DNA of 51,049 nt from an uncultured archaeon (GCA_964590575.1 CAZPWM010000014.1:1-51049); one strand, 5' to 3'; positions 15,138 to 37,282 are shown, counted from the first letter of the stretch. The notes: generated from the letters alone by a model not told the origin. Program-made: numbers and translations.

Positions 15138-15600
15138 TTATTTCGAGGGTTCGACTCTCCGGTATAAGATTGAGATGAATATCAGCAACAATACAGAAAC
15201 ACCTAGAATCTCCAAGTATAGAGAAGGCATTCCAATGTGAAATAATGGCTCGTACACTGAGGGAATGAGCGCAACACCAAAGAAAGATGCTGAGGTCACA
15301 ACACCCGCAAGAACACCTCTTCGTTCAGGGGAAATGATCTGACTATAAGTAATCATCAGAGGAAACAGAATGCCTCCCGCCCATCCAACTAGTACAAGAG
15401 CCAGACCAACCATGGGAAATGCATCAAGTATTGTAATATCTCCAATTAGGAGAAACAAGAAAATAGACGAAAATAGCGGTATAATACCAACTACGATTGA
15501 GAACCCATATCCTCTACTTCGAATTATTGGACCTAGTAGTATTCCAGCTGCTGCTCCAAAAATCCCTGCAAATAGAAGGATGAGTCCAATACTAGACTCT
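15138..15600 (-). pseudogene. C-terminal fragment of an MFS transporter
   Basis: The frame continues upstream of the called ORF (ESSIGLILLFAGIFGAAAGILLGPIIRSRG) to an in-frame TGA at about 15600 with no start codon. SPERRGVLAG is an MFS loop motif. Confidence 0.75.
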
Positions 15601-15852
15601 CACAACACCAGTCAATCCGCGTGATGTCCAAATCATAGTGCCAAGAGCATGTCAAAGAAGAAATCATCAAGGAATTGTTCAAGAACTCTACATTCATGAT
15701 TTATATAGTTCTTTAAGATTCTCATCATCAATCATTTACAATTGGGAAAATTGAATTCAGACATCTAAGGCAGGTTTCACCATGTCGCATAATGTGATAA
15801 TATTGCTATTTTCATTAATATCATGAAAATAAAAGGCAGGTTGTAATTTAGG

Positions 15853-16464
15853 ATGAGAATGAGGAGTAAGAAGCTGATACTTTTCCTTGTTGCGATACTA
15901 GGCTTATCCATGGGGACGATTCTTGCAATCGTTCCAGGAATTGTAGCTTTGAGCATAGGTCTTCCGAATGCTATTGTACTCCTTATTTTTGGAGGTATTA
16001 CATATGCGTGTTCGATACAAATAGCGTTTATAATAAGAGATCAATTTGAGGAAATAAGAGTTGACCCAAAACCAGATGCTGTTGTTAGGGTGATAGCAAT
16101 TGATGATGAAGCAGACATCTTGCAACTTATCCGTATGAAATTGTCCAAAGAAGGGTTCGATGTGTCCACAGCCTCAAATGGTGATGAGGGTATCGAGAAA
16201 GTACTTCGTGACAAACCTGATGTTATGATTGTAGATATACTGATGCCGGGAAAAGACGGATATCAAGTAGTAACTGAAGTGAAGGCAAGACTTCGAGAAG
16301 ACTCTCCTGTTACAATAATGCTAACTTCAAAGACGGAAGATGCAGATATGGTTAAGGGGCTATCCATGGGTGTAGATGATTACATCACGAAACCATTTAG
16401 TCCAAGAGAATTAATTGAGAGAATAAATGTGGCCCTCATAAAAGGCGCTAAGGAGAATAAGTGA
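15853..16464 (+). CDS. Response regulator receiver with two N-terminal transmembrane helices
   Basis: IDDE, VDILMPGKDG (phospho-Asp), LTS and YITKPF. The first ~60 aa are hydrophobic and there is no output domain. Confidence 0.9.
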   Translation: MRMRSKKLILFLVAILGLSMGTILAIVPGIVALSIGLPNAIVLLIFGGITYACSIQIAFIIRDQFEEIRVDPKPDAVVRVIAIDDEADILQLIRMKLSKEGFDVSTASNGDEGIEKVLRDKPDVMIVDILMPGKDGYQVVTEVKARLREDSPVTIMLTSKTEDADMVKGLSMGVDDYITKPFSPRELIERINVALIKGAKENK

Positions 16465-16482
16465 GATAGTGGAGGATTAGGT

Positions 16483-19400
16483 TTGGAAGATGAAATCGAC
16501 GAATCCGACACTGACGTACCAATTGAGGGTGAAACAATGCCCTTAATGGAACCAGTAACACGAATCCATTTTGACCGTGACAGTCTCCCAATAAGATCCG
16601 TACAATATTGGCGAGCTCAATCTTTTGCTTCAAGAATTCATAGAGATTTCACTGAGAGTTTTAAAACTGGAAACATTGCTATGATGAAAGGCTGCTTTTA
16701 TGCCTTGGCGGACTTTTATGAACTAACATTAAAATTAATGAGACATTCGCTTCTTAATGGGAATTCTGAATTAATGGTGTCTTCTCTAAGAAGTCTAATT
16801 GCGCTCAATGCACCACTTCATGAGATGCATAATAAGGCACCAAATACAATACCATTCCCATTGACTTTAGATGAAACTCTATTGAAGTCATTAATATCCG
16901 ACCTCATCATTAAAGCATTTGAGGAATCAGACAGAACCCTCGAGGAATCGAAACTAGTAGAAGATGTAAATCAACATATCTTCGTGCAGGAAATTGCAAC
17001 TTTAGTTATCAAAAAGCAGCTTCTCGAGTTAGTAGAGAAAGGGCACTTAATGAAGACAGACACAAGCTATACAAGAACAAAACGAACATATATACACTCA
17101 AATTTAGATGATACAAGTCTTCAGTCTTTTCTAGGTCCAGAACTCTATAAAGAATTTCAGATGGGGGGTTTTCCAGGTGTTTCTAATATTATAAACCGTA
17201 GAAAATCATTTCATAAATTCTTCGAGAAACTCACTTCATTTGGAGAGTCAATCACGGACATGTTCGTTTCTGCATTGATTGATCTTCTTCTTTCAGAAAC
17301 TATGAAATCAAAATATAGTGCGTGGTCTCACTTTAATCTGATTGGTTCAGCGATTCCACGGCCATATCAACGTGACGCATTCACGATTTTTCGAGGGTAT
17401 GGATATCAAGGGCAGCTAATTGAAGCGCCGACAGGTTCAGGAAAAACACTCATTGGTATGATGGCAATTCAAGATTGGATGACATCAATGTCATCAGGTG
17501 AGTCTATACTAATTCTAGTACCAACAGTTAATTACGAACAACAATGGATTCGAGAATTATGCTATAAATCCATAGGACTCCAACTTCCACCTGATGATGT
17601 ATATGCAGGCACACCGATTGATTATGAATCAAATAAGAAGGAGTTAGACTCCTCTCCACCTATTCTTATCATGACATATCAATCTCTTGCTCAGTTAGGG
17701 TCTTCAAAAGGGAAAGGGGGGTTTGATACCAATTCCATCGAAAAATTCCTTCAGGGTAGCAACATCCGGTATGTGATTTTAGACGAAGTTCATAAGGTTG
17801 TCGCTAATTATGATAGTGTTTCAACAGAGATTACGAAATTATTCCTAGAATGGTTGCATGACGGAAGTATAGATGGGCTCATTGGTTTCACTGGAACAGC
17901 AGTAGCATTCAGGCAACGATTTCAAGATTTAGGATTGCAACTGGTCTATACTCTGTCGTCAGCTGAATTGATAGCATATGGCTTTGTTGCTCCATTTGCT
18001 GAGTTTGGGTTTCCATTTACTCATTCTAATAGAGAAAGAACTATACTCGCTCTTCTTGATGCCTATAAATCGTCAATACGTGAATTCATTGATATTCTAG
18101 GTTCAGTGAATTTGAGAACAGTATTTAGTCAGATACCCTTGGAAAAACAGATTACCATTGGTCGGGATATTTTGGGAATCTATTCAGGAAGAGCGGACCA
18201 AGAGATTGCATTAACAGAGCGCTATCACAGTTGGGAAAGCGGCGAAGATTTGAATTTCTATGAATGGCAGCTGATTAGCATAATTCAGATTGCCGAGAAT
18301 TTATCTGATTCTGATCTTCTTGAGAAAATGATAGTTGATCTCCCAATCAATGAACAATATGAGAGAAAGAGTAGATTCACAGTAATGTTAGATTTGTTGA
18401 TGAAATTGCGGCAAGAATTCGTCAGTCTGTTAATTTCTCCAGATATCACATATCGCCTTGAAATGCAAGATTTTGGAAAAAAGTTAGATACAAAATCACT
18501 ATATAAAATTGCTAGTTCAAAGCGATCAAAGACCAAAATACGAGATAAAATCAGAGATCTTCTATCAACTACAATCCTAGGCCTTTACATATCTCTAAGT
18601 AGTTACCACTATCGAATGGGCGAAGGACTTGTAGAATCAGTGAATTCGATAATTAAAGCAGAAAGAGCTGTAAGAAGGCTAGATGCTGTAATTGTTTTTG
18701 GTAAAAGTAAACGTATTCGATGGGAGGAAGGACCTGCTAATCCAGGATACGCAGGTGTAGCTGGTATTTTTGCTCAATTACTAAACCAACGTGGACTCTA
18801 TCCTATTGCTGTACTTTCAAGTGAAATATATCTTCGTTGGACACAGAAAAATCAGACTCCACAACGAATTGCAGATTACATAAAAGAGGACATTATGAAG
18901 AATGAATTGGGGGATATTCTATTTAGACTCCTGACAACGGGGTTGGATCTTTCTCCAGAGAATAGCAGTGAATTCAAAGAATTGTTTGATTCTGTTTTAA
19001 TGAAATATGCCAATAGACTTACTTCGATAGGAGCAATAAGACCTGCGGAATTTGTAAAAGAAGTTCTTAAGCCACTTCAAAAATCGTTGCCCGGATTAAT
19101 AGAAAAAGATGATATTCCTAAACTTATATCAAGATTGAGTTTAAAAAATCGTCACGTGCAGAAATGGATAACTGATTTCTACAATTATGGAATCATCGCA
19201 TCTCGCTTCGTGAAAGCTCCGACAGCAGAATTGTACCAAGCATCTGGTAAAAAAATGAAATTCTTTGTTGTGAAAATGCCTCAGGGAGAAATGAAGCAAC
19301 TCATGTATGATTTAGCTGGTCGAATAGTTGATGAAGAAAAACTGGGAATCAATGTTATAATTGTATCAAATTGGGCGAGAACTGGATGGAATGTTATTAG

Positions 19401-20091
19401 ACCAAATCTCCTCATAGATACAACAGCAACACGAAATGTAACCGCATGGCAACAACTTCGAGGAAGAGCCATGAGAGCCACGTCTACTTGGGATAAAAAG
19501 TGCTATGAAGCAGTGATGCTTCTAGTAGGTTCAAAAATTGGAGATTTTGTTGAGCAAACTGGTGACTTCAGTGAAGCTGGTGAGGATCAGCATGGTCAAG
19601 AATACAAGCTATTGGACAAGGCTACTATCAACCTATTCTTGCAGATTCATAACGAGGCTAGGCAAATAAGTAACTACAGTCCGAAATACAACCTAACAAG
19701 AAAAATCATGCAAGGGGACTTGAAACAATTCTTGGATGATGAGCGAGAACAACTTGCTATTGAAATGATGGTGGTCCGGAACAAGGTGACACATATTTAT
19801 GAGCTTATCAAGGCATATGGAAGCTCAATCCAAATAAGTCAAAACAGACAAACAAAGGTGTGGAGCAGAATTGATTCAATTGCTGCCAAACATTCCTCTC
19901 AGTATTCTGTCAATCCATTTTCAGGCGAATATTGCAAAGGTGAAGGTCATACACCTCTAGTTTATTGGAAAGATCCGAGAGAGTATTCACCAGAAAAATT
20001 GAAGGTATATTTAACATCAAAACTGAGAGGCTGCGATCCTAGGATTATTCAAGGGTGGTTTGATGCGGTCATCTCAGGAAGAGGAAACTAA
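16483..20091 (+). CDS. Large SF2 DExH helicase/ATPase (Res/XPB-like)
   Basis: PRPYQ, APTGSGKT, LVPT, DEVH, FTGT, ARTGWN (motif V) and QLRGRAMR (motif VI). Confidence 0.88.
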   Translation: MEDEIDESDTDVPIEGETMPLMEPVTRIHFDRDSLPIRSVQYWRAQSFASRIHRDFTESFKTGNIAMMKGCFYALADFYELTLKLMRHSLLNGNSELMVSSLRSLIALNAPLHEMHNKAPNTIPFPLTLDETLLKSLISDLIIKAFEESDRTLEESKLVEDVNQHIFVQEIATLVIKKQLLELVEKGHLMKTDTSYTRTKRTYIHSNLDDTSLQSFLGPELYKEFQMGGFPGVSNIINRRKSFHKFFEKLTSFGESITDMFVSALIDLLLSETMKSKYSAWSHFNLIGSAIPRPYQRDAFTIFRGYGYQGQLIEAPTGSGKTLIGMMAIQDWMTSMSSGESILILVPTVNYEQQWIRELCYKSIGLQLPPDDVYAGTPIDYESNKKELDSSPPILIMTYQSLAQLGSSKGKGGFDTNSIEKFLQGSNIRYVILDEVHKVVANYDSVSTEITKLFLEWLHDGSIDGLIGFTGTAVAFRQRFQDLGLQLVYTLSSAELIAYGFVAPFAEFGFPFTHSNRERTILALLDAYKSSIREFIDILGSVNLRTVFSQIPLEKQITIGRDILGIYSGRADQEIALTERYHSWESGEDLNFYEWQLISIIQIAENLSDSDLLEKMIVDLPINEQYERKSRFTVMLDLLMKLRQEFVSLLISPDITYRLEMQDFGKKLDTKSLYKIASSKRSKTKIRDKIRDLLSTTILGLYISLSSYHYRMGEGLVESVNSIIKAERAVRRLDAVIVFGKSKRIRWEEGPANPGYAGVAGIFAQLLNQRGLYPIAVLSSEIYLRWTQKNQTPQRIADYIKEDIMKNELGDILFRLLTTGLDLSPENSSEFKELFDSVLMKYANRLTSIGAIRPAEFVKEVLKPLQKSLPGLIEKDDIPKLISRLSLKNRHVQKWITDFYNYGIIASRFVKAPTAELYQASGKKMKFFVVKMPQGEMKQLMYDLAGRIVDEEKLGINVIIVSNWARTGWNVIRPNLLIDTTATRNVTAWQQLRGRAMRATSTWDKKCYEAVMLLVGSKIGDFVEQTGDFSEAGEDQHGQEYKLLDKATINLFLQIHNEARQISNYSPKYNLTRKIMQGDLKQFLDDEREQLAIEMMVVRNKVTHIYELIKAYGSSIQISQNRQTKVWSRIDSIAAKHSSQYSVNPFSGEYCKGEGHTPLVYWKDPREYSPEKLKVYLTSKLRGCDPRIIQGWFDAVISGRGN

Positions 20092-20132
20092 TAATTTGAC
20101 ATATTGTATCAGGTATAAGGAAGGGAGAATCT

Positions 20133-21677
20133 TTGACCGAGCTACCAAGTGCTTTTAGAAAAGCAGAATGGGAAAAACTCATAGCTTTAGTTCTAGAGAT
20201 AAATGGTATTTTAGTGGCTGATTCCAGTGGGATCATTATTTGGGTTAATGATGCCTTTACTCATATAACGGGTTACTCTCCCGAAGAAGCAATTGGAAAA
20301 AAAACCAACCTTCTGAAATCCGGATATCATGATTCAAATTTTTACAAGATTCTTTGGGACACGATAACCTCAGGCGAAGTATGGTCTGGGGCAATGACAA
20401 ATAGAAGAAAAGATGGAAGCTACTACAAGGAATTGATGTCAATAGCTCCATTGAAAACAGAAGATGGAAGTATTGCTCGTTACATTGCCATGAAAAAAGA
20501 TGTGAGAGACTTTCATAATTTGGGTGATGCTGAAAGACAACCCAGTGCAGTGTTCGATAGGGTTGTGCCATTGATGACTGAGCTTAATGATGTCACTACT
20601 GCACTAGAACAAGCCAAAAGTGAAACGAATGCCATGCTCAACGCAACAAGTGAGGCAATAATGCTTCTCTCAATTGATGATAGGATGTTGTGGCTTAACA
20701 AGGCCTTTGGTAGATTCTTCTCATTAATTACACAAGATGTAACTGATGATTTCTTTCATAACTTGAAATCTCATTGGGATAGAGTCTTCGAGGACTCATC
20801 GAAAATAATGCACATTGTTAATAGTGCAAAGGAGAATCAAGTTTCTGAGTATCGAGAAGCAGTTTCCCAAATTTGGCCACAGAAACGAGAGCTAGAAGTA
20901 TACTCAGCACCTGTAAAAGATGCTAGTGGAAAATATTTGGGACAGATCTTCGTGTTCCGTGATGTAACACGTGAGCGAGCGGTAGAACGAATGAAATCGG
21001 AATTTGTATCTTTGGTATCTCACGAGTTCCGAACGCCCTTAACGTCCATTTTTGGTTATGCGGAAATGTTGTTAGAAGGAGATGCTGGAGAGCTCACTGA
21101 TGAACAAACAGATTTTCTGAAAACTATTCAAAGAAACGCAAACAATCTTTCTGAAATTATAAACAGTCTTCTGGTTGTTTCTCGACTTGAGGCAGGCGCA
21201 ATAAAACTAAACTTGGGTGAAATTGAGATACATGAAATTGTGGATAACACAGTTGAATTATTACGACCTCAGATTGTTGCTAAAAATTTAAAGCTGAAGG
21301 TAAGTGTTGATCCAGATTTACCAGTAGTGGAAGGTGATAGTCAATGGATTAATCAAGTCATCCTTAATCTTCTGTCAAATGCTTACAAATACACTCATTC
21401 TGGTGGGACAATAACAATTTCAGCAAAAGCAAAAGATGATTTTCTCTATATCAAAATCACGGATTCAGGAATAGGAATGTCAACAGATGAACAAAAGAAG
21501 TTATTTACGAAGTTCTTTCGAGTTGAAAATCCTGAAACCATTAAAGCAGGAGGGACGGGTTTGGGACTTTGGATTTCTCGTTCATTGGTTGAAATGCATG
21601 GGGGAGAAATCATGGTAATCAGCAAACCTAGAAAGGGTTCCACTTTCACGATTAAATTGCCAATCAAAAACAAATAA
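20133..21677 (+). CDS. Soluble PAS-PAS sensor histidine kinase
   Basis: PAS VNDAF..ITGY...RRKDG, H-box SHEFRTPL, N-box NLLSNAYKY, DSGIG and GGTGLGL. Confidence 0.93.
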   Translation: MTELPSAFRKAEWEKLIALVLEINGILVADSSGIIIWVNDAFTHITGYSPEEAIGKKTNLLKSGYHDSNFYKILWDTITSGEVWSGAMTNRRKDGSYYKELMSIAPLKTEDGSIARYIAMKKDVRDFHNLGDAERQPSAVFDRVVPLMTELNDVTTALEQAKSETNAMLNATSEAIMLLSIDDRMLWLNKAFGRFFSLITQDVTDDFFHNLKSHWDRVFEDSSKIMHIVNSAKENQVSEYREAVSQIWPQKRELEVYSAPVKDASGKYLGQIFVFRDVTRERAVERMKSEFVSLVSHEFRTPLTSIFGYAEMLLEGDAGELTDEQTDFLKTIQRNANNLSEIINSLLVVSRLEAGAIKLNLGEIEIHEIVDNTVELLRPQIVAKNLKLKVSVDPDLPVVEGDSQWINQVILNLLSNAYKYTHSGGTITISAKAKDDFLYIKITDSGIGMSTDEQKKLFTKFFRVENPETIKAGGTGLGLWISRSLVEMHGGEIMVISKPRKGSTFTIKLPIKNK

Positions 21678-21962
21678 TCTTGATATCTCTCCTCTGTTAT
21701 GTGAGCATTATTTGAACCTATAATATGTTCAGTAACAATATTGAATTCGGTCGTTGCATTATCCTGTGTTGGCTTATTGAGGTTTATCAATATCGTCACA
21801 AAGTGGTATCAATTGAATGTCATTGATCGTGAACAAGTTATCTGAGAAACTAGACCTATATTCAGTAATATCCGAAAATTCAAGATTCGGAAGACTTCAC
21901 ATGCACGAACATGCTTTTGATAAGTAAATTTTATGAACAATAAAGATAACATTGAAGAGTAT

Positions 21963-22445
21963 CTATGCATTCTCTCCAAAGAACATCAGGTAATCGGTTC
22001 CTGGGACTTCTTGACCCATATGACTAAGAACCATTGCTAATTGACCACGATGGTGAGTTGTGTGCAAGAGATACTGGAGGAAAAAGTTAATGACATCAAT
22101 CTCAAATGGTTCCTCCTTGATGTGTGAAACCATGATTTTGTCCTGGGGAATCTCTTCTATTGCATGACTGAGTCGAGTGTCAAGGACTTCCCATCGTTTG
22201 AAGAGTTCCTGTCTGGGGAGTTTCTTGACTCTATCAAAAACCGATTTGTCCTTTTCATCCTCAATATAGTAGAAGCATGTTTCTAAAGCTAAGACAATGT
22301 GTTGAACAAGTTCGCGAGGGCTTGTCCCCAATACCTCTTCTGAGAATTCTTCAGCATCCAACTCACTAAGAAGCTCTCTCATCTTCCAACCAGCCCAGAG
22401 ATGATAGTCTGCGAGCTCTCTGAATACCAATTCCTTGACCTCCAA
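21963..22445 (-). CDS. DinB family protein
   Basis: YHLWA, HIV, HTTHHRGQL and PGTDY. Confidence 0.85.
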   Translation of the reverse strand: MEVKELVFRELADYHLWAGWKMRELLSELDAEEFSEEVLGTSPRELVQHIVLALETCFYYIEDEKDKSVFDRVKKLPRQELFKRWEVLDTRLSHAIEEIPQDKIMVSHIKEEPFEIDVINFFLQYLLHTTHHRGQLAMVLSHMGQEVPGTDYLMFFGENA

Positions 22446-22482
22446 TCACAATTGACTTACTAACGTATTAGTCTACCGAGTA

Positions 22483-35779: not shown

Positions 35780-35826
35780 TTCAGTCCTCCTCCTAAGGAA
35801 AAGTTTCCTGTAGTCTCAAGATACCA

Positions 35827-36189
35827 TCAGTCAGATACAGCACTCTCAACAAGATCAAGCATATGACGAATGGTCACTGGTTTCAGACCAAAACTTGCAG
35901 CACCGTTACCCATCGCTTGTTCCCTTACGTTTGCATCAGCACTGATGAAAACAATCTTAGCTTCTGGGTCTATCTCAAGGATTTCTTTCATCGTCTGCAT
36001 ACCATCTTTGTTTGGCATCCGATGATCTAAAATAATAACCTCTGGTTTTGGGACGATAACTGCGAACTTTTCAACAGCTTCAGCGCCGTCGTATGCATCA
36101 GCCACAACCTCATGTCCTTTGATACTGAAGACATCCTTATAGAGCCTATGAAGAATTGCCTCATCATCTACAATGAAGATTGTGACCAT
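35827..36189 (-). CDS. Stand-alone CheY-like response regulator
   Basis: IVDDE, ILDHRMPNKDG, ISA and LKPV. Confidence 0.9.
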   Translation of the reverse strand: MVTIFIVDDEAILHRLYKDVFSIKGHEVVADAYDGAEAVEKFAVIVPKPEVIILDHRMPNKDGMQTMKEILEIDPEAKIVFISADANVREQAMGNGAASFGLKPVTIRHMLDLVESAVSD

Positions 36190-37282
36190 ATTTTTCGGCC
36201 TACCTTATGGCTGTGTTTCGCGCTGTACATAGACAAGATCAATGAAGGCAACACTCACGTTAAATGTGCGATACTGCTCTTTGTCCATTGCGATGACTGT
36301 ACTGTACATGTCGATACTGTGATTCGGGATATAAATGATATGTGGTTGAGTATAATCAGATTAAATCATCTAACGATACTTCGTCTGAAAAAATAATGAA
36401 AAATAGCTCTCTCTTCTATGATCTTTTACGTTTTGTTCAAGTGTCGAAAAATCGACACCTATTTTTCCCTGAGTGACGATAAATCGAAAGGTTTAATGTT
36501 TATCATATTTTTATAATATCTCTTATAGTTAATCATTAATATTCCCCTAATATATTCTATTATATACTATATAGCGGAAGTAAGAAGATAAGAATCTAAA
36601 TTTTTTGAATGTGATTAAACTTATTGATCATCGAGGAGAGGTGAAAACAATACTTCATTTTAATTATAGTATAAATCAACCAAAATATACTGTATTTGAA
36701 AATCAAATATAGATACAGTATGATGATGCCGGATATGCATACACTCATACTCAATATGTGTGTACTACTACCTTTTGGCGTAAATAACCCTGCTTCTTTG
36801 GTATCCTTTTCATGTAGTAATCCATATGATACGAAAAATGAGTATAGAGATAAATTGCATCCTGAATAAAAACACGTGCATGTACTGTAGTGCTTGATCA
36901 ATTTTGTGGATTTCGAAAAGATGACATGTTTGTTCAACTGATTGTAATTGTAAATGACTTTCCTCAAAAAACCGTAATATGGTACATGATGTACCAATAA
37001 AGGGAAGCAAGATAATATTAGAAGAATGTAATAATATATAGATAGACGTTATAATTAACTTTCGAAAAATCGTCAGATGTTGAGGGATTTATGCGCTGGA
37101 TAAAAACTATAGTTAATACATATTACGGTGGTTGGACAGATAAATACAAGGCCTTCACAATTAACTAAGGCGATTCTTACAACCAATGAATAGCTTGTCT
37201 ACATACCCTGCCTGCGGAAATCTGTGACACCATTATCAGATCAATTTCCCCTTTTCCCCCAAGTACAGGCTTGGCAAAGCTT
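36190..37282. other. About 1.1-kb AT-rich non-coding region
   Basis: No credible ORF. Very AT-rich core at about 36490-36730, with palindromes GTGTCGA-AAAA-TCGACAC (36441) and GGTACAT-G-ATGTACC (36981). Confidence 0.75.

Follow-up and report, generated by a model that had tools for sequence, protein, structure and literature searches.

What does a receiver that lacks an output domain act on when the next gene encodes a large helicase and the one after that a histidine kinase? Archaeal response regulators mostly consist of nothing but a receiver, the target of which is unknown, and the question is posed here by a 51,049-nucleotide stretch of DNA (GCA_964590575.1 CAZPWM010000014.1:1-51049), called the window below, one of the 194 contigs that make up a 3.4-Mb genome bin of Thorarchaeota (Asgard) type. 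Three co-oriented open reading frames (ORFs) encode a receiver (203 aa), a superfamily 2 (SF2) DEVH helicase (1,202 aa) and a PAS-PAS histidine kinase (514 aa), in that order and with gaps of 18 and 41 bp, and form a cassette of about 6 kb (Table 1). An initial annotation of the locus had described this arrangement, with which ORF calling and Pfam agree, and had cast the helicase as the effector of the phosphorelay. We find a real, conserved and mobile three-gene system and a candidate new output class for two-component signalling, with a mechanism that is plausible: the genes would constitute a self-contained, horizontally mobile signalling module in which the receiver binds and gates the helicase, making a phosphorelay-controlled SF2 motor its output. 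We hold this reading to be moderately probable.

A first line of evidence is conservation of the gene pair across genomes. We fetched 80 loci encoding helicase homologues, one genome per species, with flanks of up to 10 kb, and called ORFs in them; linkage counts use the 70 loci with at least 500 bp upstream of the helicase. The sampled loci include Asgard archaea, Bathyarchaeia, Methanomicrobiales, Chloroflexota, Desulfuromonadales and others, and one carrier, Methanosphaerula subterraneus (L049), is a methanogen in culture whose genome is complete. A small co-oriented ORF with a receiver (REC) domain lies on the 5' side of the helicase gene at 54 of the 70 loci, ending between 116 bp inside the predicted helicase start and 204 bp upstream of it. 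When 98 REC domains were placed in a tree (quick IQ-TREE search), the 51 paired receivers of the module and six more rows formed one clade of 57 (Shimodaira-Hasegawa-like approximate likelihood ratio test 92), and all six additional rows also stand beside a helicase (L055, L068, L079, L086, L094 and the C-terminal REC of a hybrid kinase at L071). The window receiver falls in this clade. The 41 other RECs, which comprise internal RECs of hybrid kinases, other regulators of the loci and three other RECs of the window genome, all fall outside it. The tree adds to the count L055 and L086, which the automatic rule had missed, and L071, in which the REC is fused to the C-terminus of the kinase, so that a receiver of the dedicated clade is found directly upstream of the helicase at 57 of 70 loci. 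Of the 13 loci that lack such a receiver, eight have a helicase of a divergent clade (about 30% identity) and five one of the main clade (L082, L085, L092, L098 and L104), some of these five with fragmented genes.

A PAS kinase is adjacent at 31 of the 70 loci, upstream of the receiver at 20 and downstream of the helicase at 11. The upstream kinases come from Chloroflexota and one member of the Micrococcales and are often hybrids with two internal RECs; those downstream, where identified, come from Asgard archaea and from one each of Bathyarchaeota, Patescibacteria, Eubacteriales, Geobacter, Proteobacteria and Desulfobacteraceae. The order of receiver then helicase is fixed, and the position of the kinase shifts. 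The window kinase has strong Pfam scores (HisKA, 1e-20; HATPase_c, 5e-30) and intact catalytic residues, with H297 in HisKA, the N box at 416 and G boxes at 444 (G1) and 473 (G2). Helicase-adjacent kinases of other phyla share 35-48% identity with it and score at least 256 bits when full length, at upstream and downstream loci alike, compared with 24-32% identity (one 102-residue fragment apart) and at most 159 bits for non-adjacent kinases and for six other kinase ORFs of the window genome. Judged by these scores, the adjacent kinases of other phyla are orthologues of the window kinase. Kinase orthology, the REC clade and helicase linkage taken together, all three genes are, on sequence evidence, orthologous families that travel together. 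Chloroflexota hybrid kinases occur at L044, L045, L047, L052-L055, L064, L068 and L079; their two internal RECs each form a clade of their own, and no histidine phosphotransfer (Hpt) protein was noticed nearby.

The initial annotation had named in advance what would speak against it, namely helicase homologues without conserved linkage to two-component genes or a helicase that maps to a known system with other partners. The counts above instead show the linkage, with the receiver clade upstream at 57 and an orthologous kinase adjacent at 31 of 70 loci, and no other conserved neighbour was found beside main-clade helicases. Chance adjacency of three genes is ruled out, because the arrangement recurs across phyla. 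A rival explanation is co-transcription without mutual function, in which the pair of two-component genes would regulate another process and the helicase would just travel with it as a passenger: some helicases lack the receiver and kinase pair, and 39 of the 70 loci have no adjacent kinase. Yet in the sampled loci the receiver clade is found only beside the helicase, its order relative to the helicase holds while the kinase moves, the three genes are transferred together in a sharply bounded cassette and the linkage spans archaea and several bacterial phyla; we consider the passenger explanation improbable.

No fused form of receiver and helicase was seen: none of 88 helicase ORFs matches a REC or kinase domain, and none of the 150 best representatives is a fusion. 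A metagenomic protein of 246 aa (P0201) joins a truncated module receiver in frame to the helicase C-terminal domain; we rejected it as a genuine fusion, since it probably arose by deletion or through an artefact of assembly.

The receiver itself carries Response_reg as its only Pfam domain, in keeping with the earlier description of a receiver without output domain, which had nevertheless missed a 75-residue extension at the N-terminus. The REC domain occupies residues 76-203 and has a complete signature (acidic pair D84/D85, phospho-acceptor D128 with its codon at 16234-16236, T158 and K180); all catalytic residues of the three window proteins are intact. The extension (residues 1-75) holds two strongly hydrophobic segments, so the window receiver is probably anchored in the membrane through them. 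Such segments are confined to nine Asgard-type entries among the 51 paired receivers (the window, L025-L028, L030, L032 and L041), and the other 42 are bare soluble RECs with no hydrophobic segment.

In 7 of the 51 receivers the phospho-accepting Asp is replaced, by Glu in five and by Gly in two (L059, L060, L062, L065, L066, L069 and L100, in at least three lineages of the REC tree). None of the seven has an adjacent kinase, compared with 27 of the 44 receivers that keep the Asp. These receivers look like pseudo-receivers retained beside the helicase: the receiver stays with the helicase after the kinase input has gone, as a helicase subunit would. The same observation bears on a reversed flow of signal, in which the helicase senses nucleic-acid structure in the manner of RIG-I-like receptors and controls the kinase, with the receiver as output, acting at the membrane in Thorarchaeota. 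The two transmembrane segments of Asgard receivers could be an effector feature of this kind, and MDA5, RIG-I, LGP2 and the Dicer helicase are the top structural matches of the helicase after Hef. Those matches, however, are tied with many SF2 families (Z 14-18), the bare soluble REC of 42 paired loci has no way to act alone, and the persistence of Asp-less receivers by the helicase with no kinase adjacent makes no sense if the receiver merely ends a kinase pathway. We think a reversed signal very unlikely.

Pairwise distances of receivers and helicases correlate over 51 pairs (r 0.79, with none of 999 permutations as high), which shows co-inheritance only and not contact, because related sequences are not independent. 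In an exploratory analysis by domain, REC distances followed the first RecA-like domain (RecA1) best (r 0.88, partial 0.67) and the helicase N-terminal domain next (partial 0.25), a pattern that similar rates could also cause. We predicted a complex of helicase residues 22-515 with the REC domain from alignments of 43 rows each; contacts agreed between runs to at least 86%, and the partner reached a predicted local distance difference test (pLDDT) of at least 81. Prediction and partial correlations together point weakly to the N-terminal half of the helicase as the contact.

What kind of motor, then, would such a receiver control? Full-length relatives of the helicase are about 1,150-1,250 aa long, share 41-92% identity with it and are spread over Thor-, Loki- and Bathyarchaeota, Methanomicrobiales, Chloroflexota/Ktedonobacteria, Desulfuromonadales/Geobacter and others; the family is compact and strongly conserved, and 15 diverse members aligned end to end average 58% identity per column. 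The family is also rare, with 227 members at E<=0.001 and 73 at E<=1e-30 among 1.84 billion representatives, many of them fragments. The window protein has the SF2 motifs Q (RPYQ, 293), I (APTGSGKT, 315), II (DEVH, 434), III (TGTA, within FTGTA at 469) and VI (QQLRGRAMR, 990); motifs I, II and VI are invariant across the helicase alignments and sit on two RecA-like domains. An AlphaFold2 (AF2) model from 57 aligned sequences covers residues 11-1202 (mean pLDDT 82, predicted template modelling score 0.72). With this model, Foldseek placed Hef at the top (E 5e-7), with MDA5, the Dicer helicase, LGP2 and RIG-I next, and VIA-align gave Hef at Z 17.9 (root mean square deviation 4.7, 348 aligned, covering model residues 272-1128), XPB at Z 16.9, UvsW at Z 16.4 and many SF2 families at Z 14-16. 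Hef thus tops both fold searches, with many SF2 families within 2-3 Z units, and the insertion associated with the second RecA-like domain (RecA2) is placed by secondary-structure order only. The sole sequence-profile matches were to RecA1 of XPB/Rad25 (E 2e-6). We rejected membership in that family: NCBIfam NF045503 scores 39.1 bits against a cut-off of 610 and TIGR00603 21.2 against 328.7, and the match is confined to RecA1. From the fold matches and the sub-cut-off family scores, sequence and model alike, we class the helicase as an SF2 motor of the type that translocates on duplexes or branches, one that belongs neither to XPB nor to any PADLOC family and probably not to Hef.

Two parts of the protein lie beyond this core. 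The N-terminal domain contains, at about residues 130-200, three helices followed by a beta-hairpin in the AF2 secondary structure, and its weak matches in a PDB profile search are all winged helices (cullin WH-B at E 0.0037, Hop2, histone H1 and MarR), so that a winged helix here is probable; a search of the Atlas returned no usable match for the domain. The C-terminal domain has a set of invariant residues (N1100, K1101, T1103, H1104, E1107, R1129, K1136, H1137, H1156, D1164, P1165 and R1166), and its AF2 model in isolation is poor (pLDDT 66). Free-standing copies of it were considered and rejected, since the short matching proteins mostly have helicase linker ahead of the domain and read as fragments.

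The divergent helicase clade (about 1,400 aa, 29-34% identity) lacks receiver and kinase and has surroundings of its own. It occurs in Heimdall-type archaea and in one bin labelled Bathyarchaeia (L095:4930-14642, and also L088, L090, L091, L093, L096, L097, L099 and L103), in a fixed, operon-like row of genes for an actin-like protein (ALP_N/MreB-like), unknown proteins of 231 and 372 aa, a small Arf/Ras-like GTPase, the helicase and a RING-finger protein. The GTPase gene, directly upstream of the helicase, puts a different molecular switch in the position of the receiver.

How does the cassette come to be where it is? Among 24 other genomes of the same genus, two encode the full helicase and a third a copy cut at a contig end; in the remaining 21 the only matches, with E between about 1e-5 and 1e-7, are to another protein, about 570-605 aa in length. 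The cassette is more similar between genomes (91% to G003, 85% to G017) than the flanking DNA (73-76%). Homology of the window to G002, a cassette-free genome of the same genus, stops at 15654. At this site G002 has an intact 405-aa gene of the major facilitator superfamily (MFS) and a 215-aa ORF; the window has a remnant of the MFS gene, in which a 106-aa ORF (15138-15458) matches Pfam MFS_1. As far as these alignments tell, receiver, helicase and kinase together are precisely what was transferred, and comparison of the sequences indicates that the cassette is horizontally mobile and co-inherited, including across domains of life. In G003 the 91% block continues through a DinB-family gene (21963-22480), and similarity falls to 76% at the next gene, PFK; the segment exchanged in that pair may therefore include DinB. 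The cassette ends carry no terminal direct or inverted repeats, a Pfam scan found no integrase among the window neighbours, and the helicase family has no relative on IMG/VR viral contigs and no match in PLSDB plasmids. The AT-rich island of the initial annotation holds modestly, with a GC content of 0.355-0.394 at 15-22 kb (0.36-0.39 in the three genes) against approximately 0.41-0.46 in the flanks.

Table 1. Features of the receiver-helicase-kinase locus and its insertion site, in window coordinates
Feature	Position	Strand	Basis and remarks
MFS transporter gene remnant, left edge of insertion site	15158..15654	-	blastn, 68.5% identity to 3' part of G002 MFS gene
Cassette leader, presumed promoter region	15689..15852	+	homology to G017 starts at 15689, to G010 at 15699
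Receiver, 203 aa	15853..16464	+	Pfam Response_reg 6e-27, residues 80-192; sole Pfam domain
SF2 helicase/translocase, 1202 aa, DEVH box	16483..20091	+	Pfam DEAD/ResIII 292-472, weak Helicase_C match 919-999
Helicase N-terminal domain, residues ~43-280, helical	16609..17322	+	AF2 model
RecA-like domain 1, residues ~294-512	17362..18018	+	motifs, Pfam, AF2 element order
Helical insertions and RecA-like domain 2, residues ~516-1015	18028..19527	+	AF2 element order, Hef alignment, invariant columns
Conserved C-terminal domain, residues ~1046-1197	19618..20073	+	alignment
Soluble histidine kinase, 514 aa	20133..21677	+	Pfam PAS 24-125, PAS 169-282, HisKA 287-355, HATPase_c 401-512
Cassette, G003 versus window	15847-22480		91% over 6,635 bp; flank (PFK) 76%
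Cassette, G017 versus window	15689-21683		85% over 6,002 bp; flank 73%

Mobility of this kind raises the possibility of a defence system: a Detocs-like anti-phage or anti-plasmid cassette in which the kinase would detect infection and the phosphorylated receiver would set the helicase, perhaps armed with a catalytic C-terminal domain, against nucleic acid of foreign or host origin. The patchy distribution (3 of 24 same-genus genomes), horizontal transfer across domains with a cassette much more alike between genomes than its flanks, the rarity of the family (the 73 representatives above), the invariant His, Lys, Glu and Arg residues of the C-terminal domain and matches of the helicase to PbeA, DinG and Cas3 in PADLOC would all suit it, and two-component logic has been shown to work as defence in Detocs, according to the portion of that preprint used here (bioRxiv 10.1101/2023.01.24.525353). 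The PADLOC matches are weak, however, and span only about 50-150 residues around Walker A; the best, to PbeA (E 1e-9), runs from position 252 to 392 of a 672-position profile, the rest cover less, and none extends over most of its profile. The helicase thus does not map to a known system. Around the module we found no defence-island signature with Pfam and PADLOC on 150 flanking genes at 46 loci: these genes fall into 136 Pfam families, of which Response_reg (6), META (4) and ABC_tran (3) are the most frequent, and their PADLOC matches are scattered (three members in the commonest family and one in nearly all others). The family's absence from IMG/VR viral contigs and PLSDB plasmids speaks against defence too, as does a sensor of the PAS type where the available part of the Detocs report describes tetratricopeptide repeats (TPR), and no nuclease fold was recognised in the C-terminal domain by Pfam or PDB profile search. 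We regard a defence cassette as unlikely.

Ten ORFs neighbouring the cassette in the window, scanned with Pfam, match no methylase or nuclease family, which bears out the initial annotation; the families matched are a periplasmic binding protein, HpaB, the MFS remnant, DinB-family, PFK, CorA and S9 peptidase. The methylase partner (Mod/HsdM) of type I/III restriction (Res) enzymes is absent both from these neighbours and from the 25 commonest Pfam families of the 150 flanking genes. A second ORF with a receiver domain lies on the minus strand at about 35800-36200, near 36.2 kb, and adjoins the kilobase of lowest GC content in the window (36001-37000, 0.336). The window genome (G000) has four receiver-containing and seven kinase ORFs in all (phmmer, E<=1e-8, with the window receiver and kinase as queries), so the cassette accounts for a sizeable share of its two-component repertoire.

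The preferred reading, a phosphorelay-gated motor, builds a mechanism on what is established, namely the domain content, the intact catalytic residues, the linkage across phyla, the co-inheritance and the mobility of the cassette. The cytoplasmic PAS-PAS kinase would sense an intracellular cue and autophosphorylate on H297, and the phosphoryl group would pass to D128 of the single-domain receiver. Having no output domain of its own, the phosphorylated receiver would then bind the 1,202-aa helicase, most likely at its N-terminal half (the winged-helix domain and RecA1), and binding would turn on or off the ATP-driven movement of the motor along duplex or branched nucleic acid. Two helices would tether the receiver to the membrane in the version from Thorarchaeota/Asgard, so that the location of the motor may be under the control of the switch as well.

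Several points weigh against this reading. We infer phosphotransfer, which conserved adjacency and orthology support, and likewise direct binding, the substrate and the direction in which the effect goes, and gene linkage is equally compatible with a receiver that acts elsewhere. The kinase-less loci make up 39 of the 70, and the Chloroflexota hybrid kinases, with their two internal RECs, come with no evident Hpt protein. Two main-clade helicases, L082 (next to glutamate dehydrogenase) and L092, stand amid housekeeping genes without a receiver, so the motor can exist without the switch. The C-terminal domain gave nothing credible in Pfam at E<=10, nothing in the PDB profile search and scores of at most 0.81 in the Atlas, which is the range of chance. 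Finally, the complex prediction reached a median score of 0.40 (best of three controls 0.00), in the band graded 'weak support'; 58 of 80 solved complexes attain the mark, as against 2 of 110 mismatched pairs, and at scores of 0.60 or below only 7 of the 80 do so, together with both mismatches, counts that hold only roughly with self-supplied alignments. Of the proposal that the helicase is the phosphorelay effector, conserved linkage thus supports the association, and physical gating stays a matter of inference.

Which cellular process the motor would serve can be given in rough odds. A role in replication or repair stress is possible and is our tentative first choice; conflict with foreign nucleic acid and transcription or RNA remodelling each seem somewhat less likely, on a par with one another, and some other role less likely still. 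The mobile, patchy and rare distribution fits a conflict system. A PAS sensor, housekeeping neighbourhoods and the lack of a recognised nuclease fit stress, repair or remodelling as well or better. More speculatively, and we would call it unlikely, large SF2 motors of this family might always be run by a small switch encoded just upstream, mostly a His-Asp receiver with a PAS kinase and possibly a Ras/Arf-like GTPase in an actin-like operon in Heimdall-type archaea. Such a motor, whose fold appears to come nearest to Hef and the RIG-I-like receptors, may inspect the structure of nucleic acids when the cell signals it to, and in Asgard archaea the membrane-tethered receiver would give it a route from membrane to genome that needs no transcription factor.

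How does the module compare with systems already known? Single-domain response regulators of the CheY type act by binding protein targets, as in CheY-FliM and the CpdR adaptor of ClpXP. The module receiver resembles them in its lack of an output domain, its intact D-D-D-T-K signature and its presumed action by protein contact, but its presumed target is an SF2 helicase encoded just downstream, and the Asgard form is probably membrane-anchored. In NtrC-type enhancer-binding proteins a REC domain gates an AAA+ motor with a helix-turn-helix (HTH) domain. The proposed logic of the module is alike, with receiver phosphorylation gating an ATP-driven motor that carries a DNA-binding (winged) HTH domain; its motor, however, is SF2 and not AAA+, the receiver is a separate polypeptide, as the 88 helicase ORFs without REC attest, and no sigma-54 context was seen. 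With Hef, XPB, UvsW and RIG-I-like proteins the helicase is predicted to share a RecA1-RecA2 core with helical insertions, but it is about twice as long, has N-terminal, inserted and C-terminal domains of its own and is accompanied by no Bax1, nuclease or methylase partner.

Among two-component systems tied to nucleic acid or defence, Detocs is likewise a three-gene mobile unit of kinase, stand-alone receiver and effector. In the sections of the preprint drawn on here (bioRxiv 10.1101/2023.01.24.525353), this defensive system has an effector, DtcC, in which a receiver of its own is joined to a PNP or other domain, a stand-alone receiver that is proposed to be a buffer, and a TPR sensor domain. 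The window helicase carries no REC, the feature by which a Detocs effector is recognised, Pfam finds none in the effector candidates of the module generally, and their sensor is PAS-PAS; our PADLOC searches used PADLOC-DB 2.0.0, in which the presence of Detocs models is unconfirmed. HEF_HK/Response_reg_2 pairs (PMC8011034) are also cytoplasmic, two-component-like and tied to nucleic-acid enzymes; in the passages of that paper used here they have divergent domains (PF19191, PF19192) and are linked to methylases, paraMORC ATPases and restriction-modification genes, whereas the module pair is canonical (HisKA/HATPase_c and Response_reg) and stands beside a helicase, with methylases absent. A census of two-component systems in archaea from 2018 (PMC5847659) places most bare receivers outside conserved neighbourhoods, so that their functions could not be inferred, and its only mention of a helicase, in the text consulted, compares a Cys-rich output domain structurally with the insert domain of PriA. 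In agreement with the initial annotation, which had not recognised the architecture as described, a full-text literature search found no published receiver-SF2 helicase module, although the supplementary tables of PMC5847659 might list such neighbourhoods. One receiver clade thereby gains a specific candidate target, the helicase, and a module that is compact and conserved from Asgard archaea to Chloroflexota and relatives of Geobacter would add to the known kinds of two-component output a nucleic-acid motor that is not a transcription factor.

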